Shown one piece after another: positions 40,477-62,298 of a stretch of DNA of 64,000 nt (position 1 is its first letter; each line of letters starts with the position of its first letter). The stretch comes from a virus (taxonomy: Duplodnaviria > Caudoviricetes). A program made the position numbers and the translations under genes. Under the pieces are notes generated by a model that was given only the letters and a program-made list of their open reading frames with translations, was not told the DNA's origin and made no database searches. Location: IMG/VR virus record IMGVR_UViG_3300024262_000013; one strand, given 5' to 3'.

Positions 40477-43308
40477 ATGTCTCAAGTAATAATAAGATTA
40501 ACCTTAAGTTCAAATGCAGTCGGACCATTCAGTATATATACGGGCTCTACCGCAACTACGCCGATTAAAACGGGTGTAACTAGAGACCAAATTATTGCGG
40601 GAGTTGTTTTAGACTTACCAGGTTCAGTTGCAGGTATTCAATACCTTATACTTGTAGTTAATAAACAAGTTGGTTGTAATAATGAAACTGTCTCTAAACA
40701 GGTAGTTGTTTACGAATCGGCAGTCACACCGACTGTTACTCCAACTCTTACTGTTACTCCAACTCTTACTCCAACAAATACAGTTACTCCAACAAACACT
40801 CCGACTCAGGCTCAGGCCACTCCAACGCCAACACAGACAGTAACGATGACTATGACAGTCACTCCAACAGTTACTACTACTCCAACAAACACTATTGATG
40901 TTACACCTACTAATACTCCAACTCAAACTGTGACGGTAACACCGACAGATACTCCAGGTGCTAGCCCAACAAGTACACCAACAAATACAGTAACTCCTAC
41001 AATTACTCCTACAGTAACATTAACGTCTACACCAACTAACACACCAACAGGAACACCATCAACTACTCCAGGTGTTACTCCAACTAACACACCAACAAAT
41101 ACAGTCACTAATACAGTAACTCCTACAATTACTGCAACGGTTACTAGTTCACCAACAGGTACGCCATCCGTTACTCCAACTAACACACCAACAGGAACAC
41201 CAGCAACTACTCCAGGGATAACACCAACAAATACACCAACTAATACTGTAACTCCATCAATAACTGCTGAAGTTACACCTTCAGTAACTGCAACAGTTAC
41301 ACCAACAGGTACACCATCTGTTACCGTTACTAACACACCAACAAATACAGTTACACCGACAGGTACACCATCTGTTACCGTAACTAATACTCCAACAAAT
41401 ACTGTAACTCCAACAGGTACACCATCAGTTACGGTAACTAATACGCCAACAAATACTGTAACTCCAACAGGTACACCATCAGTTACGGTAACTAATACGC
41501 CAACAGTTACTACTACACCGACAGATACTCCAGGTGCTAGCCCAACAGTGACACCAACAAATACTGCGACACCATCCGTTACGCCAACTAACACACCAAC
41601 TAACACACCAACTAACACAGTTACTCCAACAGGAACTGCTCAAGTAACTCCTACAATTACACCTACAAATACTGTAACACCAACTCAAACTGCTGTAGTA
41701 ACTCAAACTCCGACTCCAACCAATACGGTGACACCATCTGCCACTGCTGAGGTAACACCAACACCTTCGGTAACCACTACAATCACACCTACCGCTACTG
41801 CTGAAATTACCCCAACACCTTCGGTAACGACTACAGTTACTCCAACAGGAACCGCTCAAGTTACACCAACAATAACGCCGACAAATACAGTTACTCCAAC
41901 TAATACACCAACAGGTACTGCGTCAGTAACTCCGACTAATACTCCAACAAATACTGTAACTCCAACAGATACTCCATCTGTTACTCCAACAGGTACACCA
42001 TCAGTTACGGTAACTAATACGCCAACAGTTACTACTACACCGACAGATACTCCATCCGTTACACCAACAGGTACCGCGTCAGTAACTCCAACTAACACAC
42101 CAACTAATACTGTAACACCAACTAATACTCCAACTAACACAGTTACTCCAACAGGAACTGCTCAAGTAACACCAACGATAACGCCAACAAATACCGTTAC
42201 CCCAACAGGTACCGCTCAAGTAACACCAACTAATACACCAACTAATACTGTAACTCCAACAGGAACTGCTGCGGTAACATCAACTCCAAAACCAACTATT
42301 ACAATTACGCCAACTAATACTGTAACTCCAACAGTTACTCCAACTAATACTCCAACAGGAACTCCGGCGGTAACATCAACTCCAGAACCAACTAATACGG
42401 TCACTCCAACTAATACTCCAACAGGTACCGCTCAAGTAACACCAACTCCAGGACCAACTAATACGGTTACTCCGACTAATACTCCAACAGGTACGGCAGC
42501 GGTAACTCCGACAATTACGCCAACTAATACTGTAACTCCAACAGTTACACCAACTAATACACCAACAGGAACTGCGGCGGTAACATCAACACCAGAACCA
42601 ACTAATACGGTTACTCCGACTAATACTCCAACTAATACTTCAACGCCGACAAACACTCCAACCAACACCCCAACGACTACACCAACAAATACACCAACAA
42701 ATACACCAACTAATACTGTAACACCAACACCAACACCAACTCAAGGAGTAATACCTAAAGCTTTATTATTTATTATTGAAAGTACTAATAACAACGCATT
42801 TGCGACTTATATGAATAACCAAGGGTCAGGATTCTTTGGGTTTGGTTTCTCAACACCACCATCTACAGGTTCAGATATTGTAACATTTATGGATTGGCCA
42901 GGGTTCTATAACGGTACCGCACCTACTGTAATTGAGGCGGTTATACCTCAAACGTCAGGAGGGGTTGATTCCTTTGGTAATGCAATTACTCAATATAATT
43001 TTGAAACGACTGAAATACCTATAGGAACAGTTTCAGGAGCAGCTTGGTACTATTGGTTAATACCACAATCTCAGTTAGGATTAACATCTAATAGACAATT
43101 AGATATTGGTTATAATATTAATTCTGACCCTGGTGTACTCACTGCTAGGTCTCTGAGTCCATCAATATATAATTTAGCGGGTAATTATAGTGGAGTTAAT
43201 TGGGCGGCCGATACTTATAGAATGTATACTTCGTATGGTAATACCGCATTTAACATCCAGAATAATAATACTGATGATATATATTTTAAAGGTTTGACTG
43301 TCGGATAA
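40477..43308 (+). CDS. Mucin-like Thr/Pro-repeat protein
   Basis: ~80 aa N-terminal domain, ~670 aa of TPT(N/V/G)T repeats and a ~185 aa globular C-terminal domain. Confidence 0.8.
40727..42744 (+). repeat. Coding Thr/Pro repeat tract
   Basis: Includes a 54-bp-period tandem ([18 protein letters not shown], ~41.3-41.5 kb) and an exact 72-nt dispersed copy (41461-41532 = 41983-42054). Confidence 0.9.
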
Positions 43309-43395: not shown

Positions 43396-44868
43396 ATGTC
43401 GTTTATATATAGAAACCCTAGTTCCGGAGCACCATTACCACAACCAAACGTTGTTTCCCCCGTAGAAATTATAGGGACTAACTTTAGTGTATTAGGTGCT
43501 GGAGGTTATATGGAAGTGTGGTCACTTTCTAATTTAACTTACCAAACTTTTGGGGCGAGTGGGGTTATATATAATAGTGGTAATACTATACCTATTTTTT
43601 ATAGTAAATCTAACCTTGGATTTATACCTAGTAAGTTAACCATTGAAAATGATGGTATAACATCGGGTAGACGTAGATTAGGTATGCAAGTTTACGTTCA
43701 TGAAACAGATACAGTTTATCAGTATATTATACCTAATTATGAAACTTTATTTAATGCTGCGAGTGGAGCGACTGAAACCGACGCGTTCGAAGGAAGTTAT
43801 ACAGTATCCGATAACACAACACCAGGTTTAGCTTTAGTTAACGCATGGTTAGACTCCTCAATAGAAGGAGTTAGTGGAGTTACACGAACAAACGCCAGAT
43901 GGAGAATATTTTATGGTACCGATATTACAGTAACAGGTGGTACCTATAGTAATGGTACAGCCATCTTTACTAATACTACGGGTGGGACATTCAACGTTAC
44001 AGGATTCAGTACGGGTAGTTCTAGTTCTTACACGAGTTGGTTTGCTGAAGGTGATAATCAAGCTCCGGCAGTACCGATTGATGTTGTTGACGGATTTACT
44101 TTAAAGTTTGCTGGCATTATTACATCAGGAGGAGCGGGAATAGCTACCGATTCGGCGATTAGTGCTAACGAGATGACCATTGGTTTAATTAATAATGGTG
44201 GTACTCCTGATTCAACAACATTCTATAGGGGTGATGGGCAATGGATAGTACCTACAGATATTGTGGTTAGTGGTGGTACTTACGATAATGCCTCTGGGAT
44301 ATTAACTTTAAATAGAAGTGATGGTGGTAGTTTACCAATCTCAGGATTCACTACGGGAACTACAGAGGACACTTATGTGACAGGAATGTCGTATAGTCAA
44401 GTATCAAAAGAATTAACTTTAGGGTTAAATGACGGAGTGGATTTTATTGCCACAGGATTTGCCGCTGAGGTAACGGGAGGTACATATAATAGTGGTGGTA
44501 CAATTACATTAAATAATAATGATGGTACCACATCTACAATAACAGGGTTAGGAACCATAAATACTAATATTTATACGGATGACGGTACACTTCAAGGTGA
44601 CCGCGTCGTAGAACAAGACACTCATCACATAACATTTAGTGGTGGAACAGGAGTGTCAATAGGTACAGGAACAACGTCACCTGTATGCGCCTTATTAGAG
44701 TTAGCGAGTGAAAATCAGGGGTTATTAATACCTAGGATGACACAAACTCAGAGAGAAAACATACCCACACCTTTACCTGGGCTTTTACTGTATTGTACAA
44801 ACACTACTGAAGGAGCTGAGGAAGGTTTATATATGTATAAATCTTTAGGATGGGTAAGTATACTATAA
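43396..44868 (+). CDS. Tail-fibre/spike-like protein
   Basis: Gly/Thr-rich VTGGTY..GTLTL repeats. C-terminal NIYTDDGTL and GLLIPRMT..QR..I..P..GL..Y module. Confidence 0.6.
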   Translation: MSFIYRNPSSGAPLPQPNVVSPVEIIGTNFSVLGAGGYMEVWSLSNLTYQTFGASGVIYNSGNTIPIFYSKSNLGFIPSKLTIENDGITSGRRRLGMQVYVHETDTVYQYIIPNYETLFNAASGATETDAFEGSYTVSDNTTPGLALVNAWLDSSIEGVSGVTRTNARWRIFYGTDITVTGGTYSNGTAIFTNTTGGTFNVTGFSTGSSSSYTSWFAEGDNQAPAVPIDVVDGFTLKFAGIITSGGAGIATDSAISANEMTIGLINNGGTPDSTTFYRGDGQWIVPTDIVVSGGTYDNASGILTLNRSDGGSLPISGFTTGTTEDTYVTGMSYSQVSKELTLGLNDGVDFIATGFAAEVTGGTYNSGGTITLNNNDGTTSTITGLGTINTNIYTDDGTLQGDRVVEQDTHHITFSGGTGVSIGTGTTSPVCALLELASENQGLLIPRMTQTQRENIPTPLPGLLLYCTNTTEGAEEGLYMYKSLGWVSIL

Positions 44869-44917
44869 GCCTAACTAATACTAAGAGGATAATAACCAAT
44901 TAAAAAAATATAATAAC

Positions 44918-46951
44918 ATGGCAACAAATGGTTTAAATTTACAAGCAAACGGTTTAAAACTGTCAACGGGAACAGTAGAGAGACAATTCATCACCAGCGC
45001 AGGTGATTTTGGTTTCAACACACTGACTCCGAGTACCGACTTTCACTTTAAAGGTGTATCAGGAGGAACGACAGGGTTTAGAATCGAAAGTTTGGGGGCG
45101 TCCAGTTCAAACACTAATTTTTTAGTCTCGGACGCTAACGGTGTCCTCGAAACACGTAATGATATCGCCGTAGGTACGGTAGTAACAGGAGTAACAGAGG
45201 CATCTAACGTAGTAACAGTCGCGTATAACGATACAGGGGATACATCATTCACTATCGACGCATTAACAAACATGTCCTATGATAGTTCATGGGGACTTAC
45301 AGGTTCAGGTACAGGTACTGTAAATGGAACTTTTGAGCTTCCATTCATTACTTCAGGAACATACAACGCAGGTACAATTACCTTAGCGATAAACGCAGGA
45401 TTAGAATCTGACATTACAATTACAGGTCTCGATGTGGGAACTATGAGTAGTTGGAAAATAGGTTCTACTTCAGGTACAGACCAAGACGTATCAGACGGAG
45501 AGACTGTTGATATAGTAGGTGGTACTGGTATATCAGGTGTAATTGGAGGTACAAGAACAGTTACTTTAACTCTTGACGACACGTCAGTAACTACAGGTTC
45601 TTACGGAGCGGCTAATACGGTAGCAACATTTGATGTTGATGACCAAGGTAGATTAACTGCGGCGTCTGACGTATCAATTGATATTACGGCATCTCAAGTT
45701 TCTGACTTTACGGCAGCATCTGAAACAGCTATCTTTACAACGGCTAACTTTGTAGATACTACAGGAGCGTCAGGTATTAACTTCACAGTAGTTAACGGAG
45801 CATCCGTATCAGGAGTTTTAGTAAACTCATCTATTAATACTGCTGGTACTACAGGTACTGGTTCGGTAGATTTAGGTGGAACAATAACGTACAGTTCATC
45901 TGATAGTTCAGTAGTAATTGCTGATAACGGTTCAGGTACATTTGACCTTACGGTTAACGCGGCATCGGTTTCGGATTCATATGTAACAGGTGGTACAGTC
46001 TCAGGTCAAAACTTAACATTAACTGTAAGTAACGGTAAACCTAACGTAGTAGTTTCAGGATTCAGATTTAATTTATCTGCACAATCAGGAATTAGTAACA
46101 TTGTTGATATGGGTAATACCATAATCTTAAATGGAGGTACAGGTATATCTTCTGTAGGTTCAGCAAGTGATACAGTAACATTCAATCTTGATAATACTAC
46201 GGTAACTGCAGCTTCTTACGGAGCGGCTAATACGGTAGCAACATTTGATGTTGATGCTCAAGGTAGATTAACTGCGGCGGCTGACGTAGGAATCATAATA
46301 ACGTCATCTGAAGTTTCTGACTTTACGGCAGCATCTGAAACAGCTATCTTTACAACGGCTAACTTTGTAGATTCGTCTGAACTTAATTTCACGGTAAGTG
46401 CAGGAGCATCAGTAACGGCAGCGTTAATTGATGGTTCTATTGCAAACGCAAGATTAGTGAATGATTCATTAACATTTGCGGGAACTGCAGGAACAGACTC
46501 AGAGGTGGACTTAGGTGGAACATTAACCTTCTCATCTTCTGATGGTTCAGCGATAATTACTTCAACTGCGGGAACTGATACGATTGACATTACAATTGAT
46601 GGTTCAGTAACATCTCAAAACATCTATACAGATGATGGTACTTTGGCAGCAGATAGAACAGTTACTCAAAGTGGTAATGCATTAACCTTTACAGGTGGTG
46701 ATGTTCAACTTGGTGGTGGAGTTTTCCATTATGATAGGATTAACACTAATGTTGGTATAGGTACAAGTACACCGGTAGTATCAGCGAAATTAGAGGTATC
46801 GTCAACTACTCAAGGTTTCTTATTCCCAAGGATGACATCAGCTCAACGTACAGGTATTGGTTCACCGGCAACGGGACTTATGGTTTACCAAACAGATGCT
46901 GAAGAAGGTGTTTATATTAATAAATCATTTGGGTGGGTACAAGTGATATAA
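44918..46951 (+). CDS. Tail-fibre-like protein with an internal duplication
   Basis: Duplicated GSYGAANTVATFDVD.QGRLTAA fibre segment. The C-terminal GFLFPRMTSAQR..GLMVYQ module is shared with the upstream gene. Confidence 0.7.
   Translation: MATNGLNLQANGLKLSTGTVERQFITSAGDFGFNTLTPSTDFHFKGVSGGTTGFRIESLGASSSNTNFLVSDANGVLETRNDIAVGTVVTGVTEASNVVTVAYNDTGDTSFTIDALTNMSYDSSWGLTGSGTGTVNGTFELPFITSGTYNAGTITLAINAGLESDITITGLDVGTMSSWKIGSTSGTDQDVSDGETVDIVGGTGISGVIGGTRTVTLTLDDTSVTTGSYGAANTVATFDVDDQGRLTAASDVSIDITASQVSDFTAASETAIFTTANFVDTTGASGINFTVVNGASVSGVLVNSSINTAGTTGTGSVDLGGTITYSSSDSSVVIADNGSGTFDLTVNAASVSDSYVTGGTVSGQNLTLTVSNGKPNVVVSGFRFNLSAQSGISNIVDMGNTIILNGGTGISSVGSASDTVTFNLDNTTVTAASYGAANTVATFDVDAQGRLTAAADVGIIITSSEVSDFTAASETAIFTTANFVDSSELNFTVSAGASVTAALIDGSIANARLVNDSLTFAGTAGTDSEVDLGGTLTFSSSDGSAIITSTAGTDTIDITIDGSVTSQNIYTDDGTLAADRTVTQSGNALTFTGGDVQLGGGVFHYDRINTNVGIGTSTPVVSAKLEVSSTTQGFLFPRMTSAQRTGIGSPATGLMVYQTDAEEGVYINKSFGWVQVI
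45598..46372 (+). repeat. 160-bp direct repeat pair, 615 bp apart
   Basis: 45598-45757 versus 46213-46372, with exact runs of 44 nt and 62 nt. Confidence 0.95.
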
Positions 46952-46988
46952 TTAAGATAGAAAATTTCAATATAATTTGTATTGAAAC

Positions 46989-46996
46989 TATTTATA
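46989..46996 (+). promoter_or_regulatory. TATTTATA motif
   Basis: Intergenic, upstream of ATG 47060 and preceded by an 8-bp inverted repeat. Confidence 0.55.
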
Positions 46997-47013
46997 ATTA
47001 AACTATAATTAAC

Positions 47014-47035
47014 GGGAGAGATTAACGTCTCTCCC
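47014..47035 (+). promoter_or_regulatory. GC-rich hairpin in the putative 5' UTR
   Basis: GGGAGAGA-TTAACG-TCTCTCCC with no U-tract, between the promoter motif and the ATG. Confidence 0.6.
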
Positions 47036-47059
47036 AAAGCCAAAAATAAAAAAAAACGA

Positions 47060-48145
47060 ATGGCCACTAACGGAACATATTACAGTAATTCAGGAGGATT
47101 AGACCTAACATCGGGAGGCAGTGCACGAATAAACATTGCCACTGGAGGAGGAATAACCTTTAATGGTGGTTACACATTCCCAACTGCGGATGGAAGTGCA
47201 AATGAAGTCTTAATAACTGATGGTGGGGGTAACGTTACTTTTAGTACGTTACCAAACGCATCACTTGACAATTCATCGTTTAGTGTAACTGCGGGTATAG
47301 GTATTGATACGTCAACCGCTTCCGTATCGTTAGGGGGTAATTTATCGTTAACGATTGACCTTTCAGAACTAACGACTACCACAACTGCGGGTAATGCGGA
47401 CTTCTTTACTGTTGTAAATTCAACTAATAGTCAATATAAAATAGCTCCAGGAAATATTAATATTTCTACATTTAATAATGATGCTGGATTTATTACATCT
47501 GCCGGTAATACCAACATATACAATACCAGTGGGTCATTAACTGCGAATAGAGTGATTACTCAAGGTGGTAATAACTTACAGATAAGAGAAACTACAGCGA
47601 CCGCATCAAATTTAAACATTTATTCAAGTAGTAACGCAACAATTAACACGCCAAGAGTTAGGATTGAGGGGGATAGTTCATATAATACGGTTCTTGAGTT
47701 AAAAATCGATGACAAATCAGTGTCAATTGTTGAGGGGTATAACGAACTTGGGGGATTAGTTTTCTCAGTTGACGGTTCGGGTAACTTAACCGCCAATTCT
47801 AAATCTTTCTTAATTCCGCATCCTTCAAAAGAGGGGTATAGTTTAAGGTATGGTTCTTTAGAGGGTCCTGAACATGGTGTTTATGTTAGAGGTAAAGTAG
47901 ATGGAACGAATACGATTGAATTACCGGAATATTGGTTAGACTTAGTAGATGAAGATACGATAACTGTTCAATTAACTCCAATAGGTTCACACCAAAACTT
48001 ATATGTGAAAGATGTATTAAATAATACTATAGTTATTGGTAACTCAAATATATTAAGTGCAAAAATTAAGTGTTTTTACTTAGTACAAGCCGAAAGAAAA
48101 GATATTGGTAAAATGGATGTAGAATATCCAAATACGATAAAGTAA
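47060..48145 (+). CDS. Tail-fibre-like protein with a conserved C-terminal domain
   Basis: YTFPTADGSANEVLITDGGGN fibre motif. The C-terminal KSFLIPHP...LEGPEHGVYVRG...LPEYW..LV...ITVQLTPIG pattern is common at the ends of phage fibre proteins. Confidence 0.75.
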   Translation: MATNGTYYSNSGGLDLTSGGSARINIATGGGITFNGGYTFPTADGSANEVLITDGGGNVTFSTLPNASLDNSSFSVTAGIGIDTSTASVSLGGNLSLTIDLSELTTTTTAGNADFFTVVNSTNSQYKIAPGNINISTFNNDAGFITSAGNTNIYNTSGSLTANRVITQGGNNLQIRETTATASNLNIYSSSNATINTPRVRIEGDSSYNTVLELKIDDKSVSIVEGYNELGGLVFSVDGSGNLTANSKSFLIPHPSKEGYSLRYGSLEGPEHGVYVRGKVDGTNTIELPEYWLDLVDEDTITVQLTPIGSHQNLYVKDVLNNTIVIGNSNILSAKIKCFYLVQAERKDIGKMDVEYPNTIK

Positions 48146-48172: not shown

Positions 48173-48197
48173 AAAGAGGACTTAGTCCTCTTTTTTT
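48173..48197. terminator. Bidirectional intrinsic terminator
   Basis: AAAGAGGAC-TTA-GTCCTCTTT plus a T run, between convergent genes. Confidence 0.85.
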
Positions 48198-48456: not shown

Positions 48457-49725
48457 ATGGCACGTAAATCGCAAACAATTTTTGTACAAATAGCCGCCTA
48501 CAGGGACCCTGAATTAGTCAAAACTATCGAAAATATGATAGAAAATGCTAAAAGACCACAAAACCTTGTGTTAGGTATTTGTCGTCAATATCACCCTGAA
48601 GACGGGTTTGATAATTTAGATAAATATAGGGAAGATAAACGATTCCGAATTAGCGATGTCTTGTATACCGACGCTAAGGGGGTATGTTGGGCTAGGAACC
48701 AAGTACAACAATTATATGATGGAGAAATGTATACCCTACAGATTGATTCACATATGAGATTTGCCCCTGATTGGGATGTTGAGTTAATAAAGATGATTAA
48801 GGACCTCCAAAAGAAGGGAATACCAAAACCATTGTTGACAGGATACGTTTCGTCATATGACCCTGATAATGACCCTAAAGGACGAGTACAAGAACCATGG
48901 AGAATGGTTTTTGACCGGTTTATTCCTGAAGGAGCTGTATTCTTTTTACCTGAAACAATACCAGGACATAAAGAACTTGATATCCCTGTACCATCAAGAT
49001 TTTACTCAGCACATATGTGTTTTACTTTAGGTGAGTTTGCTGAAGAGGTACAACATAATCCTGAGTATTATTTTCATGGAGAAGAAATATCAATAGCGGT
49101 AAGAGCATTTACGTGGGGTTATGATTTATTTCATCCACATAAGACACTAATTTGGCATGAATATACACGTAAAGGTAGAACTAAACAATGGGACGATGAC
49201 TCAACATGGGGAGACAAAAATAGTCACTCACATTTAACAAATAGAAAGTTGTTCGGTATGGATGGCGAAAAACAAGAAGGGCATGAGGGTATTTATGGTT
49301 TTGGTACTGAAAGAACATTAAGGGATTATGAGGAGTATTCAGGGCTATTATTCTCTAAAAGAGCGATACAACAACATACGATAGATAAAAATTATCCACC
49401 AAATCCAGGAATAAGTGATTTTAAAAATGAGGAAGAGTGGATAGAAAGTTTTTCATCGATATTTAAACACTGTATAGATGTTGGTTTTGATAAGGTTCCT
49501 GAGAAAGATTATGACTATTGGGTTGTGGCCTTTCATGGTGAAAACGATAAAACTTTATTTAGAAAAGATGCCGATAAAAATGAGATTGATAGAATGATGA
49601 AGGACCCCGAAAAATACTGTAAAGTATGGAGAGAATTCCCAACTGCAGAAAAACCTAAATATTGGGTTGTTTGGCCGTATTCTAAATCTAAAGGTTGGTG
49701 TGAGAGGATAACAGGTAATTTATAA
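48457..49725 (+). CDS. GT60-like (Skp1/polypeptide GlcNAc-transferase-like) glycosyltransferase
   Basis: IFVQIAAYRDPEL..TI, GVCWARNQVQQLY.GEMYTLQIDSHMRF..DWD, LLTGY, FYSAHMCF, YFHGEEISIAVRAFTWGYDLFHP...WHEY all match the GT60/GlcNAc (PF11397-type) pattern. Confidence 0.8.
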   Translation: MARKSQTIFVQIAAYRDPELVKTIENMIENAKRPQNLVLGICRQYHPEDGFDNLDKYREDKRFRISDVLYTDAKGVCWARNQVQQLYDGEMYTLQIDSHMRFAPDWDVELIKMIKDLQKKGIPKPLLTGYVSSYDPDNDPKGRVQEPWRMVFDRFIPEGAVFFLPETIPGHKELDIPVPSRFYSAHMCFTLGEFAEEVQHNPEYYFHGEEISIAVRAFTWGYDLFHPHKTLIWHEYTRKGRTKQWDDDSTWGDKNSHSHLTNRKLFGMDGEKQEGHEGIYGFGTERTLRDYEEYSGLLFSKRAIQQHTIDKNYPPNPGISDFKNEEEWIESFSSIFKHCIDVGFDKVPEKDYDYWVVAFHGENDKTLFRKDADKNEIDRMMKDPEKYCKVWREFPTAEKPKYWVVWPYSKSKGWCERITGNL

Positions 49726-51308
49726 TGGTAGAAAAAATGGCAAATATAGCATTTTATGGTTCACATAATGCAACTGTGGCGGTAGAAAAAGAAGGTAAAA
49801 TAATAACAGTAATTGAGGTAGAAAGATTCTTATCGATGAAAAATGCGGGTTACGCTCAGTATTTGATATCGTACACTAGACCTTACTTAATGAAATATAT
49901 TTTAAAATATATTGAAGACGAATATGGTATTTCAGAATATGAAAACTGTTATTATTTAAATACAGATACGATAGAAAATGGGACTAAAGTTCATTATGAG
50001 AAACTTATATCCGCAAAAAATTACCATAATTCATTACATCACTTAAGTCATGCTGCTTGTGCATTATATCAAACTGATTATCAAGAAGCTTTAATAATTT
50101 CATTTGATGGCGGTGGTAATGATGGATTCTTCAATATATATTTAGCTAAAGATAGAGATAATATTCAATTATTAGAGAAGTATAATTTAGATTTAGGTTT
50201 TCCTTATATGTCTTTTGGGGACTATTTAAGTGATATTCGTAAAGAACCGGCACTTAATATAGGTAATTTAGTTTATTCAGGTAAAATAATGGGTTTATGT
50301 TCTTATGGTAACGTTAATAAAGAATGGTTACCTTATTTTGAGAATTATTATCGAAGAAAACCTGATGGGTTAAACTACAAAGAGTATTTAAATGATTTAA
50401 GTAATGAAACAGGTTTAATCTTTGATATTAATAATAGACTTACAGGTCAAACCGCTTGGGATTTAAGTGCTACTTCTCAAGAGGCATTTGAAAATGTTTT
50501 TATGGAAATGGCTCAACCATTTTTAGATAAGTACCCTAATATTCCATTGATAACTGTTGGTGGATGTGCGTTAAACATTTTATTAAATACCAAATTACAA
50601 AAAATGTTAGATAGACCTGTTTTTGTACCACCAAATCCTAACGATTGTGGTATCGCATCCGGTATGATATTAAATCACATCAAACCTAAAACCGCGATTG
50701 ATTTAACTTATGCCGGTACAGAAGTGTTAGATAAACATACTTTAATGTCACACGTTGAAGAAAGAAGAGCTAAGGAGTTAGATATTAACATATTATCTAA
50801 AGACTTGTCAGAAGGTAAAATTGTTGGAGTCGTAAGAGGAACGTCAGAACATGGACCTAGAGCGTTAGGTAATAGAAGTATTATTTGTAACCCCGCTTAT
50901 CCTGATATGAAAGACACATTAAACGCTAAAGTTAAAAATCGTGAGTGGTATAGACCTTTCGCTCCCGTATGTAGATTAGAGGACGTTGAAAAATACTTTA
51001 ATTTTTCAGGTGAAAGTAAATGGATGAGTTTTTGTCCGACAGTTAGAGAAGAATGGAGAGAAAAATTAACATCAATAACACACGTTGATGGTACGGCTAG
51101 AGTTCAAACAGTTACTTATGAACAAAACCCTTGGTTATATAATTTAATTGGGGAGTTTGAAAAATTATCAGGTATTGGGGTTTTATTGAATACGTCATTC
51201 AACGTTAACGGTAAACCAATCTTGAGTAGATATGCAGATGCGTTAACTGTATACGATAAAACTAAACTAGATTGTTTAGTACTCTCAGATTATTATTTTA
51301 AAAAATGA
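49725..51308 (+). CDS. NodU/CmcH-family O-carbamoyltransferase
   Basis: HNATVA..ERF, HHLSHAA, DGGG, GKIMGLCSYG, GGCALN, PNDCG, EHGPRALGNRSI, KNREWYRPFAP, HVDGTARVQTV and LLNTSFN motifs. Confidence 0.95.
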   Translation: MVEKMANIAFYGSHNATVAVEKEGKIITVIEVERFLSMKNAGYAQYLISYTRPYLMKYILKYIEDEYGISEYENCYYLNTDTIENGTKVHYEKLISAKNYHNSLHHLSHAACALYQTDYQEALIISFDGGGNDGFFNIYLAKDRDNIQLLEKYNLDLGFPYMSFGDYLSDIRKEPALNIGNLVYSGKIMGLCSYGNVNKEWLPYFENYYRRKPDGLNYKEYLNDLSNETGLIFDINNRLTGQTAWDLSATSQEAFENVFMEMAQPFLDKYPNIPLITVGGCALNILLNTKLQKMLDRPVFVPPNPNDCGIASGMILNHIKPKTAIDLTYAGTEVLDKHTLMSHVEERRAKELDINILSKDLSEGKIVGVVRGTSEHGPRALGNRSIICNPAYPDMKDTLNAKVKNREWYRPFAPVCRLEDVEKYFNFSGESKWMSFCPTVREEWREKLTSITHVDGTARVQTVTYEQNPWLYNLIGEFEKLSGIGVLLNTSFNVNGKPILSRYADALTVYDKTKLDCLVLSDYYFKK

Positions 51309-52192
51309 AAACAAAAATAGTTACATTCGTATATTTTGGCATAAATGACTTTCCTTTTTATGGTCACGAACCACAGGCTAGGTGGGATAGATATAAAAAT
51401 TCACTTTTACAATTATCAGAAATGGGTTTACCTATAGTTTGTTATTGTGGTAGTAACGTTTACCCTGAATTAAAAAAATTACTTGAAACCAATGAGGTAA
51501 AAAATATAGATTTAAGAATTAGGGAATTAGAAGATTTTCGTCATAGTAAAAGTATGATTAAGATTAAAGAAAAAAACCCTGAAAAATTTAACTTTTACTT
51601 AGAAGTCGGATGGGCTAAAATTGCCTTAATGGAAGAGGAAATGGAAGATGATTTAGATTATTTATATTGGGTCGATATTGGTTTATCTCATGTTGGGTTA
51701 TTTCCTTTTAGATTTAATAGTAATGGTGATAAGATTACAGGTACGTCAACAAATAAATATAGATACACTTTCGATAAAATTTTTAATACAGATACTTTTA
51801 AAAAAATTAATAATTGGGTAGGTGATAAATTAATTAATTTAACGAACACTCAATTTTTTCATAATGCAACTACACTTAATAATACTTTAGATAAAAAACA
51901 CAAATATAAGTCTTTAACCGTTGGTGGAATTATTGGGGGACATGTTAGTAAACTTCCTAACTTTTTTAAATCATTTGAAGAATACTCTCAAGTATGTTTA
52001 GAAAAAGAGTATTTACTAAATCATGAAGCGATGATGTCTACAATCTCTTACGATAGACCTGAGGATTATGAAACATTTATATTTGGAACATGGTATCACG
52101 AGGATACACCAATGAAACATGTTACAACAGAATTTTTAAACAGTAAAAAGAGTTTTTATAAATTCTTTGAGGAAATAGAAAATAAAAAATGA
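51305..52192 (+). CDS. HtrL/YibB (WlaTC)-like glycosyltransferase
   Basis: YLYWVDIGLSH, VGGIIGG and NHEAMMS parallel the FWLDAG / GGFFGG / TEESLFS motifs of the HtrL-like domain in the 52742 gene. Confidence 0.55.
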   Translation: MKTKIVTFVYFGINDFPFYGHEPQARWDRYKNSLLQLSEMGLPIVCYCGSNVYPELKKLLETNEVKNIDLRIRELEDFRHSKSMIKIKEKNPEKFNFYLEVGWAKIALMEEEMEDDLDYLYWVDIGLSHVGLFPFRFNSNGDKITGTSTNKYRYTFDKIFNTDTFKKINNWVGDKLINLTNTQFFHNATTLNNTLDKKHKYKSLTVGGIIGGHVSKLPNFFKSFEEYSQVCLEKEYLLNHEAMMSTISYDRPEDYETFIFGTWYHEDTPMKHVTTEFLNSKKSFYKFFEEIENKK

Positions 52193-52218
52193 AAGAATTA
52201 GAAAATAAAAAAAAATGA
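52189..52218 (+). other. 9-codon mini-ORF (MKELENKKK) linking two ATGA overlaps
   Basis: The ATG at 52189 overlaps the upstream TGA, and its own TGA (52216-52218) overlaps the ATG at 52215. Confidence 0.5.
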
Positions 52219-52742
52219 AAGATTTAAATCAAATTTTCCCACAATTAAAAGACCTCGACACCAACTTAAATAATTTAGACGGTTGGGCACTATCTATAGA
52301 GTGTTTTTATTGGATATATAATAATATTGAAAAAGGTTCAAACATTATTGAGATAGGTAGTGGTCCTGGAACGATGGAGTTATCTAAACACTTCAACACA
52401 TATAGTTTAGAACATCAAGAGAGATTTACAAAATTAGCACCTAAAGCTAATTATATACTAACAGAATTAGTAGATGGTTGGTACGAACCTGAAATAGTTT
52501 TTAATTCTTTACCTGAAGAATATTCTCTTATTATTGTTGATGGTCCACCTAACTTAGGTCAAGAAAAAACTAGAAATAATATTAAAAAGTATTGGGATAG
52601 GTTCGATACTTCAGTACCTATAATTATGGATGATACACATAGACAAGATGAATATGAATTTGCTATTGAAACTGCAAAAGAATTAAATAAAGAGTGGACT
52701 CAATACGAAGGGTGGCAAAAAAACTTTATAGTGTTGACATAA
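52215..52742 (+). CDS. Class I SAM-dependent methyltransferase
   Basis: IIEIGSGPGT (motif I), YSLEH, LIIVDGPP and IIMDDTHR motifs. Confidence 0.8.
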   Translation: MKDLNQIFPQLKDLDTNLNNLDGWALSIECFYWIYNNIEKGSNIIEIGSGPGTMELSKHFNTYSLEHQERFTKLAPKANYILTELVDGWYEPEIVFNSLPEEYSLIIVDGPPNLGQEKTRNNIKKYWDRFDTSVPIIMDDTHRQDEYEFAIETAKELNKEWTQYEGWQKNFIVLT

Positions 52743-55126
52743 TGATAGAATTAAAAAAAACAGATTATTTTAATGATGCTCTACATCATTTGGGTAAAAA
52801 GGGTGAGAAATTATTCACACTTAATATCGGTGCGATGGATGGGATTACTTTTGATGAGATGTCAGGGTATATAAAAATGTATAACTTTAAAGGGTTATAT
52901 GTTGAACCTATTCCTGTTTATTATGACTTATTAAAAGAAAATTATAATGATGATGGTAATTTATTTGAAAATAGTGCAATTTCAGATTATGATGGAGAAA
53001 TAACAATGTTAACCATTGATAAATCAGTTATTGACCAAGGATTAGTTCATCCAGCATTTTTAGGGATGAGTGCGGTATACCCACCAAAGAATGGACTAGG
53101 TAGTGAAGGTGACCGTGAAGTGGTTGAAAAATACGGAAAAAAAATTACAGTACCATGTATTACCTTCAATCATCTATTAACTAAACATAATATAGATAGT
53201 TTTGATGTTGTTAAAATTGATGCCGAAGGACATGATTATAATATTTTTAAACAAATTGATTTAAAAAAATATAGACCTAGAATTGTAAGAGCGGAATGGT
53301 CAAGTATTGAGGATTTTGAGAAAACATCTTTGATAGAACAATTAAATAGTGCGAATTACATATATGGTATCGAAGCAGATGATATTGTTGGTATTACTAA
53401 AGAGTTATATGATGAGATTTACAATAAAAAAGAAGAAATAATGGTAGATATGAAAAGTAATGGGGTTACTATAGTCACAGGTTTATGGGATATAAAAAGA
53501 GATGGACTTACAGAAGGATGGTCACGTAGTTATGAGCATTATTTAGAGAAGTTTTCACAATTATTAGAGACACCTAATAATATGATTATTTTTGGAGATA
53601 AAAAATTAGAAGAATTTGTCTTTAAAATTAGACAACATGAGAATACTCAATTTATTGTTAGAGACCAAAGTTGGTTTAAAGGAGAATTTTATGAACCAAT
53701 TCAAAAAATAAGAACTAATAAAGAATGGTATAATCAAACAGGATGGTTAGGGGAATCAACCCAAGCTAAATTAGATTTATATAATCCATTAGTGATGTCT
53801 AAACCATATCTTTTACATGACGCAAAAATTATGGATAAATTTAAATCCACTCATTTATTTTGGTTAGATGCCGGTATCACCAATACTGTACATAACGGAT
53901 ATTTTGTTAAGGATTTATTTTTAGGTAAGATGGAAAAAACTGACAAAATGACGTTCATTGCCTTTCCATATGAGACTAATAGTGAAATTCATGGGTTCGA
54001 ATATAATAAATTAAATGAATTGGCCGGTGGTAAAGTAAATAAAGTATGTAGAGGGGGGTTTTTTGGGGGACCAGTTGAAGATATATCTGATTTTAATACG
54101 GAATACTATAATTTAATGAAAAGTACTCTAAAAGACGGATATATGGGTACAGAAGAGTCTCTATTTTCGATTCTTTTATATCGTTACCCCGAAAATTACC
54201 AATACTATCTTATAGAGGGAAATGGGTTGATTAATAAATTTTTTGAAGATGTTAAAAATGATAATCATGTAGTATTAAGTGAGTCAAAAACTATATCATT
54301 AAAAAATGATTTAGATATTAATAATACTGCACTCTATGTGATAACATTTAATAGTCCTAATCAGGTTAAAACATTAATAAAATCAATGAAAGAATATGAT
54401 GAAGATTTTGTTACTAAACCAAAATGGATTTTATTAGATAATTCAACAGATTTAAGTACCACACCAGAATATGAGAGATTATGTGAAGAGTATGGGATTA
54501 CTCATATTAAAAAAGATAATTTAGGTATCTGCGGTGGTAGACAATGGGTTGCTGAACACGCCGAAGAGAATGGGTACGACTACTATTTCTTTTTTGAAGA
54601 CGATATGTTTTTTTATCCTAAGAAAGGTGAGGTCGGTAAAAACGGTTTTAATAGGTTTGTTAGTGGGTTATATAGGAAATCCTTACAAATATCTAAAAAA
54701 AATAATTTTGACTTTTTAAAATTATCATTTAGTGAATTTTACGGAGATAATAGAGTTCAATGGGCTTGGTACAATGTACCTCAAGAATTTAGAGAAATTC
54801 ATTGGCCCGAAAAACCAACATTACCTGTCCAAGGTTTAGACCCTAATGCTCCTAAAACTAAGATAACTAAAATAGATACATTTAACGGTGTACCGTATGC
54901 TCACGGGGAAATTTACTATTGTAATTGGCCTCAAGTGGTATCTAAATATGGTAATAGAAAAATGTTTTTAACTGAAAAATGGTCTAGACCATTTGAACAA
55001 ACATGGATGTCATATATATTTCAAGAAACTGTAAAAGGTAATATTAATCCAGGAATTTTACTACTTACTCCAACTGAACATGACCGATTTGACCATTATG
55101 ATGGTAAATTAAGAAAAGAGTCATAA
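52742..55126 (+). CDS. Fusion of an FkbM-family methyltransferase, an HtrL/YibB-like GT and a GT2-like GT
   Basis: Likely ATG at 52742 (TAATG overlap). NIGAMDG, YVEPIP, VKIDAEGHD (FkbM); VTIVTGLWDIKR, FWLDAG, GGFFGG (HtrL-like); YVITFN, LLDNS, NLGICGGR, YYFFFEDDM (GT-A fold). Confidence 0.8.
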   Translation: MIELKKTDYFNDALHHLGKKGEKLFTLNIGAMDGITFDEMSGYIKMYNFKGLYVEPIPVYYDLLKENYNDDGNLFENSAISDYDGEITMLTIDKSVIDQGLVHPAFLGMSAVYPPKNGLGSEGDREVVEKYGKKITVPCITFNHLLTKHNIDSFDVVKIDAEGHDYNIFKQIDLKKYRPRIVRAEWSSIEDFEKTSLIEQLNSANYIYGIEADDIVGITKELYDEIYNKKEEIMVDMKSNGVTIVTGLWDIKRDGLTEGWSRSYEHYLEKFSQLLETPNNMIIFGDKKLEEFVFKIRQHENTQFIVRDQSWFKGEFYEPIQKIRTNKEWYNQTGWLGESTQAKLDLYNPLVMSKPYLLHDAKIMDKFKSTHLFWLDAGITNTVHNGYFVKDLFLGKMEKTDKMTFIAFPYETNSEIHGFEYNKLNELAGGKVNKVCRGGFFGGPVEDISDFNTEYYNLMKSTLKDGYMGTEESLFSILLYRYPENYQYYLIEGNGLINKFFEDVKNDNHVVLSESKTISLKNDLDINNTALYVITFNSPNQVKTLIKSMKEYDEDFVTKPKWILLDNSTDLSTTPEYERLCEEYGITHIKKDNLGICGGRQWVAEHAEENGYDYYFFFEDDMFFYPKKGEVGKNGFNRFVSGLYRKSLQISKKNNFDFLKLSFSEFYGDNRVQWAWYNVPQEFREIHWPEKPTLPVQGLDPNAPKTKITKIDTFNGVPYAHGEIYYCNWPQVVSKYGNRKMFLTEKWSRPFEQTWMSYIFQETVKGNINPGILLLTPTEHDRFDHYDGKLRKES

Positions 55127-55180: not shown

Positions 55181-58100
55181 ATGGTTGGATATAAGGTAGG
55201 TCAAAAAGTTTTATTGCTTGACGGGTCTTTTTTGAATATTGAAAATGTTCAAGAAGGTATGTTATTGCAAACTATTGCTTTGCCCAATGATGATATAACT
55301 AAAGATGGTTTACAATGGTCCACTAAAGAAATAAAGGAGTTACGATATGTTTCTTCTGAAGTTAACAAAGTTTCCAAACAAAATAATGAATTTATTAGTA
55401 TTAATGAATTATCATTAAATGATAAGGAAATATTGGTATATGATACCGTAGATTCGAAGTTCGAGTTTAAAAATGTTAAAGACTTATCCTTAGGTGATGA
55501 TTATAAGTTAGTAAGAATTGATGGAGATAGTATACTATTGGAAAATATTTATAGTTATGAAAAATCTAATAACGAAGAAGATTTAATATCTATAAGTTTA
55601 AATGGTCCTTTTCATTATCTTTTAGATGGGTACATAGTACATAATGATGTTCCAAACATTTGTGTTCGTAATTGTTCTAATAATGCGATAGCATGTATTG
55701 GTAATACCTCGACACCACCTTTAGTGGCGGGTAGTACTGGGTTTATAGATAATTTTGGTAATTGTTGGTTAGCGATTAGTGACTGCAATAGTTGTACCCC
55801 TACCGTATCATTTACAGGTACAATACAGTCGGTATGGAATGGTAGCTCATGTCTTGATTGTCCTAGTAGTGATGTAACACCAACCCCAACACCAACCCCA
55901 ACAATTACACCTACAATAAATAATGGTCAATTTCAGTCTTGTTGTCCTCCTTTTGGCTCTACTAATCTTTCATATACAAATGGGTCTATAAATGATATAT
56001 TTATTTATAATGGTGGTTGTTATAAACTCATAAATTCTTTGGGTTTCGGTGGTCCAATGGCTACATTGTCCACAGAATTTGCCGATTGTGAAAAGTGTGT
56101 TTTGGAAAATCCTTGTTCTGAACCAACTCCGACTCCAACCAATACTCCTACTCAAACTCCGACTCCAACCAATACTCCTACTCAAACACCTACAAATACC
56201 CCGACTATAACTCCTACGGAAACAGTAAGTTATCGTGAATTACGAATTAGAGATTGTTGTACTGATACTTTAGAACTATCTATTATGGTTCCTGACGCTT
56301 TAATTAATAATTTTATTACCACTGGTGCTGCATTCATTTTTAATGATTGTTGTTATTATGCGTTTGCTACAGGTGGAAGTGGTAGTGATGGTGTTAGAAA
56401 CACATCCGATTCAACTGATTGTAATAAATGTCAGACGACGCATCCATGTGCCGAATGGTTAATAGATGCTATTGATTGTTGTGATGAATCGATAACGTTA
56501 TCAGAAAAATTCATAGTGGCTTGTTCCGACCCACTAATAAAACCTAGTGTATTATACGGCGATGTTTTTACTTATAATGGTACGTGTTGGGATATTGTAA
56601 GTGAAACCCAAACAACAGGAGCAACAATAACGTTAGATATTAGTGACTTTTATAATGACTGTCCTTCTTGTGTGACTTGTCCAACAAACACACCTACCAA
56701 TACTCCAACAAACACACCGAAACCAACAGTAACTCCATCTGTAACTACTACTCCATCTGTAACTACAACTCCAACAGATACTCCAGCTGTAACTAAAACT
56801 CCAGCTGTAACTACAACACCAACAGGTACTCCAGCTGTAACTAAAACGCCATCAGTAACAGTAACTCCAGCTGTAACTACAACACCAACAGGTACTCCAG
56901 CTGTAACTAAAACGCCATCAGTAACAGTAACTCCAGCTGTAACTACAACTCCAACAGATACTCCATCTGTAACAGTAACTCCATCTGTAACTGTAACTCC
57001 ATCTGTAACTACAACTCCAACAGATACTCCATCAGTAACAGTAACTCCAGCTGTAACTACAACTCCAACAGATACTCCATCAGTAACAGGTACTCCAGCT
57101 GTAACTACAACGCCATCTGTAACTGTAACACCAGATGTAACTACAACTCCAACCAATACACCTACTCAAACGCCAACAGGAACTGCTCAAATAACTTTGA
57201 CTCCAACTAACACCCCTACTCAAACGCCAACTAATACACCAACAGGTACTCCTTTATCTACTCCTGGTGTAACACCTACTAATACTCCGACAGGAACTGC
57301 TCAAATAACTTTGACTCCAACCAATACACCTACTCAAACGCCTACTAATACTCCAACTAATACTCCAACTGAAACGCCGACTAATACACCTACCGAAACA
57401 GCTAACGTAACTGCTACACCTACTGAAACACCTACAAATACCCCAACTAATACTCCGACCAATACAGTAACTCCAACAGGTACTCCTCAAGTAACTCCAA
57501 CGAATACCGTTACCCCAACAGGTACGGCAGCGGTAACTCCAACTAATACTCCGACCAATACAGTAACTCCAACAGGTACTCCATCAGTTACACCTACAAA
57601 TACCCCAACAAATACTGTAACTCCAACAGGAACTGCACAAGTTACTCCGACAATTACACCAACAAATACGGTTACTCCAACTAATACGGTTACTCAAACT
57701 GTTACGCCAACTAATACGCCAACTCAGACTGTTACGGTGACTCCAACGGATACTCCAGGTGCGAGTCCAACATCGACACCTACTAATACGGTAACCCCTA
57801 CAGTTACACCAACAAATACACCAACAACTACTGTAACTCCTTCAATAACTGCTGAAGTTACACCAACAGGTACTCCTTCAGTAACAGTAACGCCAGATGT
57901 AACTGTAACTCCATCAGTAACAGTAACTCCATCAGTTACACCTACAAATACACCAACTGAAACTGCTAACGTAACTCAAACTCCTACTGAAACTCCAACT
58001 AATACTCCAACAGGTACTCCTGGTGTAACACAAACTCCTACTGAAACACCAACTGAAACACCAACCAATACGCCTACTAATACACCAACAGGTACTCCTG

Positions 58101-61002: not shown

Positions 61003-62298
61003 ATGACTACAGTATCAGTAAATACGGCAACAGGAACATCACCCTTTCAAATATGGGTGGCAAATGGTTGTGGAGTTAATGCTCAACAAACTTATATTAG
61101 TCAAATTATTAGTGCGGATATCCCATATACATTTAACTTACCATCTCAGTATGAAAATTCTCCATTCTGTGTTAAAGTAATTGATTCGGATAATTGCGAA
61201 GTTTGTGATTGTTTTGGTTTTGGTCCGACGCCAACACCTTCAGTAACCGCAACGGTAACTCCTACGGTAACTGTTACTCCAACACTGACTCCGACACCTA
61301 CCGTTTCTGCACCATGTCCAACTCCGACATATTACTATGGTTCATTTACAGGTAACGGATTTACCTCATCCGCAACATATACCTTATCTCCAACATTACA
61401 CAATGGAAGAGCTCAGTGGGTCTCACCAAGTAACGGAACAATACAGTGGGTTGGGAATAGATGGGAAGTGTCATTTTATAATTTAGCTGGTGTTTTATAT
61501 TATAACCTAAATATGACTATAGATTCACCTGATACTATAAATTGGGTATTACAGGGATGTGCCGCGGATTTCCAATGTGCGGTTTCATTCACAATTGGAG
61601 GATGTGGTTTACCGACCCCAACACCTACTACTACTCCAACAATGACTCCAACCCCTACCGTCACATCAAGTCCGGGAGCTAGTCAAACACCAACACCTAC
61701 GAATACGCCAACCAATACGCCAACCAACACTCCGACTCAAACACCAACTAACACACCTACCAATACTCCAACAAATACTCCAACAAATACTCCAACACCA
61801 ACTAATACCCCAACGACTACTCCAACGACTACCCCAACGACTACTCCAACGACTACTCCAACTAATACGACTACTAACACACCGACTCCAACAGTTACTC
61901 CTTCATCGACAAGAGGCGTGATTTATAACTTCTATTATACGATGGCATTAGGTAGTAGTGGTATGAGTAATGGTAAAATAATGTTTAGTCCGAATGGTTC
62001 AATCAGTAGCTCAACGTTATCGATAACGGGGGCGACAGATATTTTAGTTGCGAGAGAAGAAAATGGTTCTATCGATAGAACTGATGAACTAACAGGTGTA
62101 ACTACAGGTAGTGAATTTTTAATTACATCCATAGATAATCCTTTTGAAAATGTTGTATTAACAGTTGATGAGCCCGACCCACTATTCAGCGTAGCCCAAA
62201 GTTTTGTTAGGTTTCCTATATTAACTTTAGAAAGTTACACAAATGAGCCACCTTTTAGTGCTGGTGAATCATTAGAATTAACAATAACCTTACAATGA
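61003..62298 (+). CDS. Thr/Pro-repeat protein with small globular domains
   Basis: PT tracts at ~61.23-61.32 kb and ~61.61-61.91 kb. TACTTATA lies upstream at 60936-60943. Confidence 0.75.
   Translation: MTTVSVNTATGTSPFQIWVANGCGVNAQQTYISQIISADIPYTFNLPSQYENSPFCVKVIDSDNCEVCDCFGFGPTPTPSVTATVTPTVTVTPTLTPTPTVSAPCPTPTYYYGSFTGNGFTSSATYTLSPTLHNGRAQWVSPSNGTIQWVGNRWEVSFYNLAGVLYYNLNMTIDSPDTINWVLQGCAADFQCAVSFTIGGCGLPTPTPTTTPTMTPTPTVTSSPGASQTPTPTNTPTNTPTNTPTQTPTNTPTNTPTNTPTNTPTPTNTPTTTPTTTPTTTPTTTPTNTTTNTPTPTVTPSSTRGVIYNFYYTMALGSSGMSNGKIMFSPNGSISSSTLSITGATDILVAREENGSIDRTDELTGVTTGSEFLITSIDNPFENVVLTVDEPDPLFSVAQSFVRFPILTLESYTNEPPFSAGESLELTITLQ

Follow-up and report, generated by a model that had tools for sequence, protein, structure and literature searches.

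The subject of this report is a gene for a GT60-family glycosyltransferase that carries an additional C-terminal domain (the tail), found in a 64,000-nucleotide stretch of viral DNA (IMG/VR record IMGVR_UViG_3300024262_000013; Duplodnaviria, Caudoviricetes) that we refer to as the window. The gene is an ATG-to-stop open reading frame (ORF) of 422 amino acids (aa) (P0121), with coordinates exactly as given in an earlier model-made reading of the letters alone (the sequence-only reading). All of the motifs quoted in that reading are present in the ORF, namely, IAAYRDPE (aa 12 to 19), QIDSHMRF (aa 95 to 102), FHGEE (aa 206 to 210), and FHPHKTLIWHEY (aa 225 to 236) in the catalytic core and FKHCIDV (from aa 337), WVVAFH (aa 356 to 361), and YWVVWPYSKSKGW (aa 402 to 414) in the tail. 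The gene is the first of a same-strand run that continues with genes for a carbamoyltransferase and for proteins of 295, 175, and 810 aa. Other window genes encode a baseplate wedge protein, gp25, a gp32-like protein, a UvsX-like recombinase, a DnaB-like helicase, and ribonucleotide reductase. The nearest IMG/VR record to the window, which has a GC content of ~32%, is a 162-kb contig rated 52% complete, and close relatives of the phage are contigs of ~290 to 320 kb; from these phage genes and the size of the relatives, we conclude that the window is jumbo myovirus DNA. A DNA-level search of cultured phages with the window returned no match.

Catalytic core and its relatives

The only Pfam family matched by the protein is PF11397 ("GlcNAc," CAZy GT60), a family built around Dictyostelium Gnt1. 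The match covers aa ~6 to 298, with a score of 216.5 bits against a cut-off of 21 bits (E = 9.3e-64). The phage glycosyltransferase family PHROG 24687 was matched along nearly the whole chain (E = 3.2e-163; aa 6 to 419 on profile positions 2 to 406 of 409). These two matches, together with a homolog in the cultured phage XacN1 described below, bear out the central claim of the sequence-only reading, that a GT60-family enzyme with a GT-A fold is encoded by a phage. In an alignment of 45 full-length homologs (36 to 93% identical), residues Q44, R80, D97, H99, F102, W106, D107, E209, E210, and H234 were invariant. By analogy with GT27 enzymes, the D97-S98-H99 motif and H234 would form a metal (Mn) site.

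An AlphaFold2 model of the full protein, built from the 45-homolog alignment, had a predicted local distance difference test score (pLDDT) of 95.6 and a predicted template modeling score (pTM) of 0.90. When the model was compared with reviewed UniProt models by Foldseek, Gnt1 ranked first (E = 1.3e-25, 25% identity, template modeling [TM] score of 0.64, query residues 4 to 332), a rank that cannot separate hydroxyproline from Thr specificity because the Swiss-Prot structure library contains no other GT60 member. All other matches listed after Gnt1 were GT27 polypeptide GalNAc-transferases. GT27 enzymes also made up nearly all of the top 50 matches among solved structures (E ~1e-10, 10 to 16% identity), with GlfT2 and chondroitin polymerase ranking lower, and a sequence search of solved structures found nothing at E values up to 1. 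The best matches of the full protein are thus polypeptide N-acetylhexosamine (HexNAc) transferases, Gnt1 and the GT27 enzymes, and not GT-A enzymes that act on lipids or small molecules. The chain opens directly in strand 1 of the Rossmann-like nucleotide-binding fold and has no signal or membrane segment, which argues that the enzyme is cytoplasmic, like Gnt1.

The family is very abundant in phages and bacteria, with more than 7,000 close relatives and ~4,500 clusters at 50% identity. The statement in the sequence-only reading that characterized GT60 enzymes are eukaryotic agrees with a review (PMC8724618) and holds for enzymes of known function, but uncharacterized prokaryotic and phage members number in the thousands. 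A literature search found no relevant paper on GT60 in phages, on PF11397, or on a carbamoyltransferase combined with a glycosyltransferase in jumbo phages. Among the proteins that we collected, P0123, P0124, P0125, P0133, P0136, P0154, and P0223 (1,490 to 2,461 aa) carry four tandem GT60 cores and no tails.

The C-terminal β-sandwich domain

The sequence-only reading described the last ~90 to 110 aa as an extra domain of no family that it recognized, suggested a role in peptide or glycan recognition, and by implication likened it to the C-terminal lectin domain of GT27 enzymes. The extra domain is real, since the PF11397 match ends at aa 298 and no Pfam family matched aa 300 to 422; the structural match to Gnt1 likewise ends at query residue 332. 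The tail is not unusual within GT60, however: PHROG 24687 spans it, and about half of the cluster representatives and most bacterial homologs carry it. Modeled alone, residues 312 to 422 folded with confidence (pLDDT, 94.9; pTM, 0.81) into a β-sandwich. The tail is therefore a discrete domain, but it resembles immunoglobulin (Ig) and fibronectin type III (FN3) domains and not the ricin-type β-trefoil of the GT27 lectins, and the implied likeness to those lectins does not hold for the fold.

A Foldseek search of the PDB with the tail returned nothing below an E value of 0.001. Exhaustive VIA-align comparison with 48,161 chains gave FN3 domains and the Ig-like domains of GH2 and GH76 glycosidases at Z scores of up to 7.6, which is about background for a small sandwich, and we therefore call the tail an Ig/FN3-like sandwich and no more. 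A close structural match was found in the AlphaFold Database clusters (a 360-aa "glycosyl transferase" of PF11397; TM score, 0.74), and the nearest ESM Atlas models belonged to two PF11397 clusters of 422 to 430 aa that were 80 to 97% viral (TM scores, 0.85 to 0.86). Because the only close structural matches are the tails of PF11397 proteins, we consider the tail to be a family-specific Ig/FN3-like domain. An ESM Atlas feature search with the tail that excluded the PF11397 clusters gave no usable match, which is a weak test for the tail outside GT60 proteins.

A hidden Markov model (HMM) of the tail detected it in 77 of the 150 best cluster representatives, always directly after a GT60 core, in arrangements that include core-tail-core-tail and core-tail-tail. 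The same HMM found it in 66 of 80 bacterial homologs, and from both counts the tail is a family-specific module and not a one-off. GT60 differs from GT27 mainly in that the ricin-like domain is absent (PMC8724618), so a GT60 core with another kind of accessory domain is a distinct architecture, and in prokaryotes the common one. In short, the phage enzyme belongs to a family already known but occurs in a new setting and has a distinct architecture.

Comparison with the two best-matching families sets out this architecture. Gnt1 (Q8T1C6, CAZy GT60) shares PF11397 with the phage enzyme, is soluble and cytoplasmic, has no lectin domain, and is of similar length (423 versus 422 aa), but it has no counterpart of the β-sandwich tail. 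It also acts on one hydroxyproline of one protein and needs a prolyl hydroxylase, whereas the likely acceptors of the phage enzyme are the long Pro-Thr arrays described below. The animal GT27 enzymes (e.g., GalNAc-T2 and -T4) share the GT-A fold, the D-x-H metal motif, and the combination of a catalytic and a C-terminal accessory domain. They differ in their low identity to the phage enzyme and in their accessory domain, which in GT27 is a ricin-type β-trefoil lectin on a flexible linker and in the phage enzyme a sandwich of ~90 aa packed on the core. The phage enzyme has neither the ricin B-type lectin nor the sequence-level match that define GT27.

We propose that the tail, which the full-length model (pTM, 0.90) packs rigidly on the core, probably helps to hold an extended Pro-Thr acceptor or a growing glycopeptide; it would then be functionally analogous, but not homologous, to the ricin-type lectin domain of GT27. 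Conservation in the tail is highest at R369, D371, P400, W406, P407, and W414, together with aromatic residues at positions 354 and 403. Cofolding of the enzyme with a 61-aa Pro-Thr segment (P0272:140-200) gave a score of 0.00 and a pLDDT of ~26 for the partner, values that speak neither for nor against such a contact. A serious alternative, unlikely in our judgment but well worth keeping in mind, is that the catalytic reading is right and the tail instead brings the cassette enzymes together, as an oligomerization or docking domain, or serves as a purely structural cap. Sandwiches of the Ig/FN3 type frequently serve in protein-protein contacts, fusions of core-tail units to HtrL domains and core-tail-core-tail tandems both occur, and the rigid packing is unlike the linker-tethered arrangement of a lectin. 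A role in docking sits less easily with the conserved residues, which include three aromatic positions and a W-P pair that could suit polyproline-II peptides or sugars. A structural cap is argued against by the tandem arrays of two to four GT60 cores (proteins of 600 to 2,500 aa), which have no tail; their existence argues that the core can fold without it.

The downstream cassette and Pro-Thr tracts

The coordinates of the GT60 gene, its neighbors, and selected genes of bacterial GT60 loci are given in Table 1. The 810-aa protein of the downstream cassette combines three parts and matched Methyltransf_21 (E = 1e-18), HtrL_YibB (E = 3e-16), and, weakly, TAGT (E = 0.003). The 295-aa protein weakly resembles the HtrL-like part of the 810-aa protein (E = 5e-5). 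In closer relatives of the window phage, the genes downstream of GT60 vary while GT60 itself is kept. Several representatives join GT60 core-tail units to HtrL_YibB domains in one protein, and these fusions argue that both act in one pathway. The listed GTG start of the 810-aa ORF overlaps the 175-aa ORF by 49 nucleotides (positions 52694 to 52742), and the true start may lie further downstream.

Table 1. Features of the window and of bacterial GT60 loci (positions in the window unless a locus is named)
Feature	Coordinates	Strand	Basis
943-aa protein; 685-aa Pro-Thr tract (nt 40714-42768) between small N- and C-terminal domains; candidate acceptor	40477..43308	+	Translation, tract scan
Three fiber-like Thr/Ser/Gly-rich proteins (490, 677, and 361 aa) directly 5' of the cassette; context	43396..48145	+	ORFs, translations
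GT60-family glycosyltransferase with C-terminal β-sandwich tail	48457..49725	+	PF11397, PHROG 24687, AlphaFold2 model
GT-A catalytic core, aa 1-298; DSH motif (D97, H99), E209/E210, H234	48457..49350	+	Pfam extent, conservation, Foldseek
Tail domain, aa ~332-422; seven-strand Ig/FN3-like β-sandwich	49450..49722	+	Separate fold, conservation
NodU/CmcH-type O-carbamoyltransferase; start overlaps the glycosyltransferase stop codon	49725..51308	+	Carbam_trans_C (7e-63), Carbam_trans_N (1e-19), PHROG 1601
295-aa protein, no Pfam match, distantly HtrL-like	51305..52192	+	Homolog of XacN1 ORF332
175-aa protein	52215..52742	+	No significant Pfam or PHROG match
810-aa three-part enzyme: FkbM methyltransferase, HtrL_YibB, C-terminal GT-A-like part	52694..55126	+	Pfam
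1904-aa protein; Cys-rich modules and Pro-Thr tracts (nt 56093-56248, 56651-58762, 60416-60556); candidate acceptor	55181..60895	+	Translation, tract scan
431-aa protein; two shorter Pro-Thr tracts (nt 61210-61350, 61579-61947)	61003..62298	+	Tract scan
VgrG with (PT)n tail, four Burkholderiales	L417:12291-15152; L398:13903-16389; L428:15055-17523; L442:15096-17582	- (all)	
PqqD-domain proteins with Pro-Thr tract, Gemmatimonadota	L390:9329-9967; L387:8510-9232	+ (both)	

The presence of a carbamoyltransferase raises the idea that the cassette hypermodifies phage DNA, with 5-hydroxymethyl-pyrimidines being decorated to evade restriction. A characterized phage carbamoyltransferase converts 5-hydroxymethylcytosine to 5-carbamoyloxymethylcytosine (PMC8670742), the 810-aa protein has weak matches to the TET-associated (E = 0.003) and beta-glucosyl-HMC (E = 6.5e-6) glycosyltransferase families, and a thymidylate-synthase-family gene occurs in five of five related complete genomes. 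However, the DNA-modifying carbamoyltransferases of that study lay at most 3 kb from the thymidylate-synthase homolog, and those beside glycosyltransferases, as here, were on unmodified contigs (PMC8670742). The gene in question (PF00303) is 60 to 170 kb from the cassette in the five related complete genomes, and none was found among the window ORFs scanned. To our knowledge, the GT60 and GT27 folds are not known as those of DNA glycosyltransferases. A search for Tet/JBP genes gave no match, but its control was silent too, which makes it uninformative. We consider DNA modification a very improbable role for the cassette.

The cassette lies between proteins with long Pro-Thr tracts, which are candidate acceptors. 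The tract of the 943-aa protein, (TPTxT)n in form, is 5.7 kb upstream, and ~750 aa of tract lie 0.9 kb downstream; a scan of the first 35 kb of the window found no Pro-Thr tract. Of the fiber-like proteins that separate the upstream tract from the cassette, the third matches PHROGs 17490 and 28536, and related contigs have PTL_trimer genes in the equivalent place. A tract was present within 10 kb in 69 of 80 related IMG/VR loci, a proportion that carries limited weight because these loci are close relatives. Three complete GT60-bearing jumbo phage genomes, including that of the distant phage XacN1, have 3, 20, and 23 Pro-Thr tracts.

For the converse test, viral records were picked only by a DNA pattern for (TPTx)3TPT, with a random 14-mer as the control. 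PF11397 was found in 21 of 73 pattern-picked records and in 0 of 48 controls (Fisher p = 6e-6), but many of the viral records counted are mutually related and the counts are not independent events. The association persisted when the test was limited to records below 100 kb (p = 0.003), and among the pattern-picked records of at least 100 kb PF11397 was present in 12 of 18. Records of this size made up 18 of 73 picked by the Pro-Thr pattern (L138 to L217) versus 2 of 48 picked by the random 14-mer (L258 to L337), and long Pro-Thr tracts seem to be mainly a feature of large phages.

Which residue of these tracts would be modified bears on a strict Gnt1-like reading, in which hydroxyproline in the Pro-Thr tracts or in another protein is glycosylated after a host prolyl hydroxylase, or an unrecognized phage one, has acted. 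The closest characterized structural relative, Gnt1, is the Skp1 hydroxyproline GlcNAc-transferase and is cytoplasmic and soluble like the phage enzyme, and the candidate tracts are as rich in Pro as in Thr. The top rank of Gnt1, as explained above, does not discriminate. A 2-oxoglutarate oxygenase of the PF13640 (prolyl hydroxylase) type was found in none of five complete related genomes, in a search whose control was positive in 2 of 14 known genomes, nor was one found among the window ORFs scanned. Given this result and the presence of Thr at every second residue of the tracts, Thr is favored over hydroxyproline, in agreement with the sequence-only reading, which had noted that the window encodes no prolyl hydroxylase and had preferred Thr as the acceptor. 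We regard prior hydroxylation as a slim prospect.

The core of the cassette is kept in order in the Xanthomonas jumbo phages XacN1 and Xoo-sp13. In XacN1, the cassette runs from ORF334 to ORF330. ORF334 is a GT60-plus-tail protein that is 47% identical to the window protein over 98% of its length, and it too is followed by a carbamoyltransferase (ORF333; 46% identical), which in XacN1 has a 240-aa extension. ORF332 is a homolog of the 295-aa protein (28% identity, E = 4e-29), and ORF330 matches aa 255 to 810 of the 810-aa protein (40% identical, E = 2e-143), so that the HtrL-type glycosyltransferase occupies the matching position but has no FkbM fusion. XacN1 also differs from the window phage in its GC content (50%) and in its proteobacterial host, which belongs to another phylum. 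Its 23 Pro-Thr tracts are located in ORFs 174, 180, 190, 232 to 237, 350, 369, 370, 372, and 384, several of which adjoin head and tail-sheath genes. ORF232 to ORF237 (AP018399.1, positions 124048 to 133104) are six consecutive same-strand genes for "hypothetical proteins," each with a Pro-Thr tract, and look like a tandem paralog family of candidate glycoproteins.

Purified XacN1 virions yielded at least two Schiff-stained glycoprotein bands, and the authors of that study proposed that two phage glycosyltransferases, ORF328 and ORF334, make the glycoproteins (PMC5852040). In that paper, ORF334 is named only as a "glycosyltransferase family protein," with no reference to GT60 or to Pro-Thr tracts (PMC5852040). 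XacN1 is in culture and its virion proteomics data are public (PXD008065), and the proposal that we develop below is therefore directly testable.

Bacterial GT60 loci and proposed function

We searched 40 GT60-bearing bacterial genomes, genome-wide, for the strict pattern (TPTx)3TPT and found it in 12. In Paraherbaspirillum, Ralstonia, Achromobacter, and Paraburkholderia, every strict match fell within the 21-kb GT60 locus (at most 10 kb from the gene); a binomial estimate for these four genomes is ~2e-7 if they are independent, and all four are Burkholderiales. In each, this sole strict tract is the C-terminal (PT)n tail of a type VI secretion system (T6SS) VgrG spike protein (Phage_GPD, Phage_base_V, and Gp5_trimer_C domains) encoded 1 to 4 kb from GT60. 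The VgrG-linked enzymes appeared to be tail-less in tblastn searches, in which the matches ended at residue ~320 to 330, but we rejected this view when the HMM detected the tail in two of the loci (L398 and L417). In L428, L442, and L450, the GT60 protein ends in an extension of about the same length, which the tail HMM does not recognize.

Two further kinds of Pro-Thr proteins adjoin bacterial GT60 genes. In Gemmatimonadota, a small PqqD-domain protein with a C-terminal Pro-Thr tract is encoded 34 to 64 bp upstream of a GT60-plus-tail gene, and the PqqD domain suggests a peptide-recognition context or one like that of ribosomally synthesized and posttranslationally modified peptides (RiPPs). 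In several phyla (L420, L435, L440, L409, L410, L431, and L447), small proteins next to GT60 have a twin-arginine-like N terminus (RRQFV.. or RRRLLQALG..) followed by a Pro-Thr tract; judged from their N termini, export by the twin-arginine (Tat) pathway of a protein glycosylated in the cytoplasm would fit these putative substrates.

We propose that the phage GT60 enzyme most likely glycosylates the Pro-Thr appendage proteins of the phage itself, and we place the probability of this reading at roughly 55%. During infection, a soluble, cytoplasmic, retaining GT-A enzyme would transfer the first HexNAc, by family analogy alpha-GlcNAc from UDP-GlcNAc, to Thr residues in the long Pro-Thr tracts that the tail or baseplate appendage proteins carry. 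The downstream enzymes, namely, two HtrL-like transferases, a GT-A domain, the O-carbamoyltransferase, and the FkbM methyltransferase, would then extend and decorate the sugar, and the stalks of the virion would end up with a mucin-like glycan coat. Our analysis establishes the family, the fold, the domain layout, the conserved cassette, and the statistical association with Pro-Thr tracts; the donor sugar, the acceptor residue, the reaction order, and the function of the tail are inferred from these.

Two known kinds of system resemble parts of this proposal. Freeman et al. are said to have reported in 2023 (as cited in PMC12619734) that the C termini of mycobacteriophage capsid and tail-tube proteins are glycosylated by phage-encoded glycosyltransferases. 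The likeness is that phage enzymes decorate their own structural proteins in the cytoplasm, and the difference is that the acceptors are C-terminal extensions of capsid and tail-tube subunits and not mucin-like stalks. The glycosyltransferases that act on mycobacteriophage virions are not known to belong to GT60. Within GT60, the protist enzymes Dictyostelium Gnt2 and Trypanosoma cruzi OGNT start mucin-type O-glycans on Thr/Ser-rich domains (PMC8724618). Going by this review, the phage Pro-Thr tracts are the same kind of substrate. The phage enzyme differs from the protist enzymes in being cytoplasmic, in its added Ig-like domain, and in the carbamoyl- and methyltransferases that follow it. 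Gnt2 and OGNT work in the eukaryotic Golgi, which implies membrane-anchored proteins of the secretory pathway.

Alternatively, the cassette could alter a host glycan during infection (lipopolysaccharide [LPS] core, O antigen, or capsule), with GT60 acting on a sugar or a lipid-linked acceptor; the host might thereby be closed to superinfecting phages or present changed receptors. The name HtrL_YibB comes from an LPS-core gene neighborhood, bacterial polysaccharides and Nod factors typically carry carbamoyl and methyl decorations, and the genes downstream of GT60 vary among related phages as those of O-antigen clusters do. Nevertheless, the closest structural relatives of the enzyme are all polypeptide modifying, the enzyme has no membrane anchor, its gene lies within the late tail/baseplate module of a lytic-type jumbo phage, and the strong link to Pro-Thr tracts would be left unexplained. 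We therefore judge a host-glycan target improbable and prefer glycosylation of the phage's own appendage proteins.

Several observations weigh against that preference. Both the donor sugar and the acceptor are assigned by analogy with distant relatives in eukaryotes, at 25% identity. The tail, as modeled, has the fold of a common β-sandwich, which says nothing about function, and the LPS-core origin of the name HtrL_YibB makes a polysaccharide target conceivable. The stained bands of XacN1 carry no protein assignment, and two candidate glycosyltransferases were named for them (PMC5852040); moreover, the XacN1 cassette has no Pro-Thr tract within 10 kb. Among the bacteria, 28 of the 40 GT60-bearing genomes have no strict tract and the tracts of Acidobacteriaceae are far from the GT60 gene, so the Pro-Thr link is not universal, and tracts at most 1.5 kb from the gene in bacterial loci numbered 12 where 7.7 were expected (p = 0.06), a marginal enrichment on which we do not rely.

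Mucin-type O-glycosylation is generally assigned to the eukaryotic secretory pathway, and GT60 enzymes of known function come only from protists. As a tentative generalization, possible in our view but on balance doubtful, we suggest that prokaryotes and viruses have a widespread cytoplasmic form of mucin-type O-glycosylation, in which a GT60 core with an Ig-like acceptor-holding domain coats the Pro-Thr stalks of contractile-injection machinery and other proteins that fold in the cytoplasm. Its targets would be phage tail appendages, T6SS VgrG tails, and Tat-exported proteins, with carbamoyl and methyl groups added to the glycans in jumbo phages. If this is true, the eukaryotic GT60 and GT27 mucin-initiating enzymes would originate among bacteria and phages, and many abundant aquatic jumbo phages would wear a self-made glycan coat. 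If the phage enzyme acts as the evidence suggests, such a coat on large phages of aquatic habitats and of plant pathogens would matter for how they recognize hosts, how stable the particles are, and how they adhere to mucus or biofilms. The many Pro-Thr "linkers" of phage and bacterial proteins may in that case serve as arrays of glycosylation sites and not as passive spacers. The enzyme would also offer a soluble, easily expressed tool for dense O-HexNAc modification.

Some smaller features of the window are recorded here. A 55-aa ORF on the minus strand (positions 48182 to 48349) occupies the gap between the last fiber-like gene and the GT60 gene, and a 58-aa minus-strand gene is called at the equivalent place in two related contigs (L003 and L004); judged by this recurrence, it may be a real conserved small gene. 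The nearest GT60 copies in "bacterial" metagenome-assembled genomes (MAGs) (L376 to L379; 71 to 74% identity) are labeled Saprospiraceae or Bacteroidia; the contigs, which may be phage sequence placed in bacterial bins, hint at a host among the Bacteroidota. Two giant structural proteins of the window (positions 34120 to 40365 and 62321 to 63958) contain SprB repeats. Published work describes a lineage of aquatic jumbo phages that has four core groups of glycosyltransferases and is predicted to infect Bacteroidota (PMC12619734).

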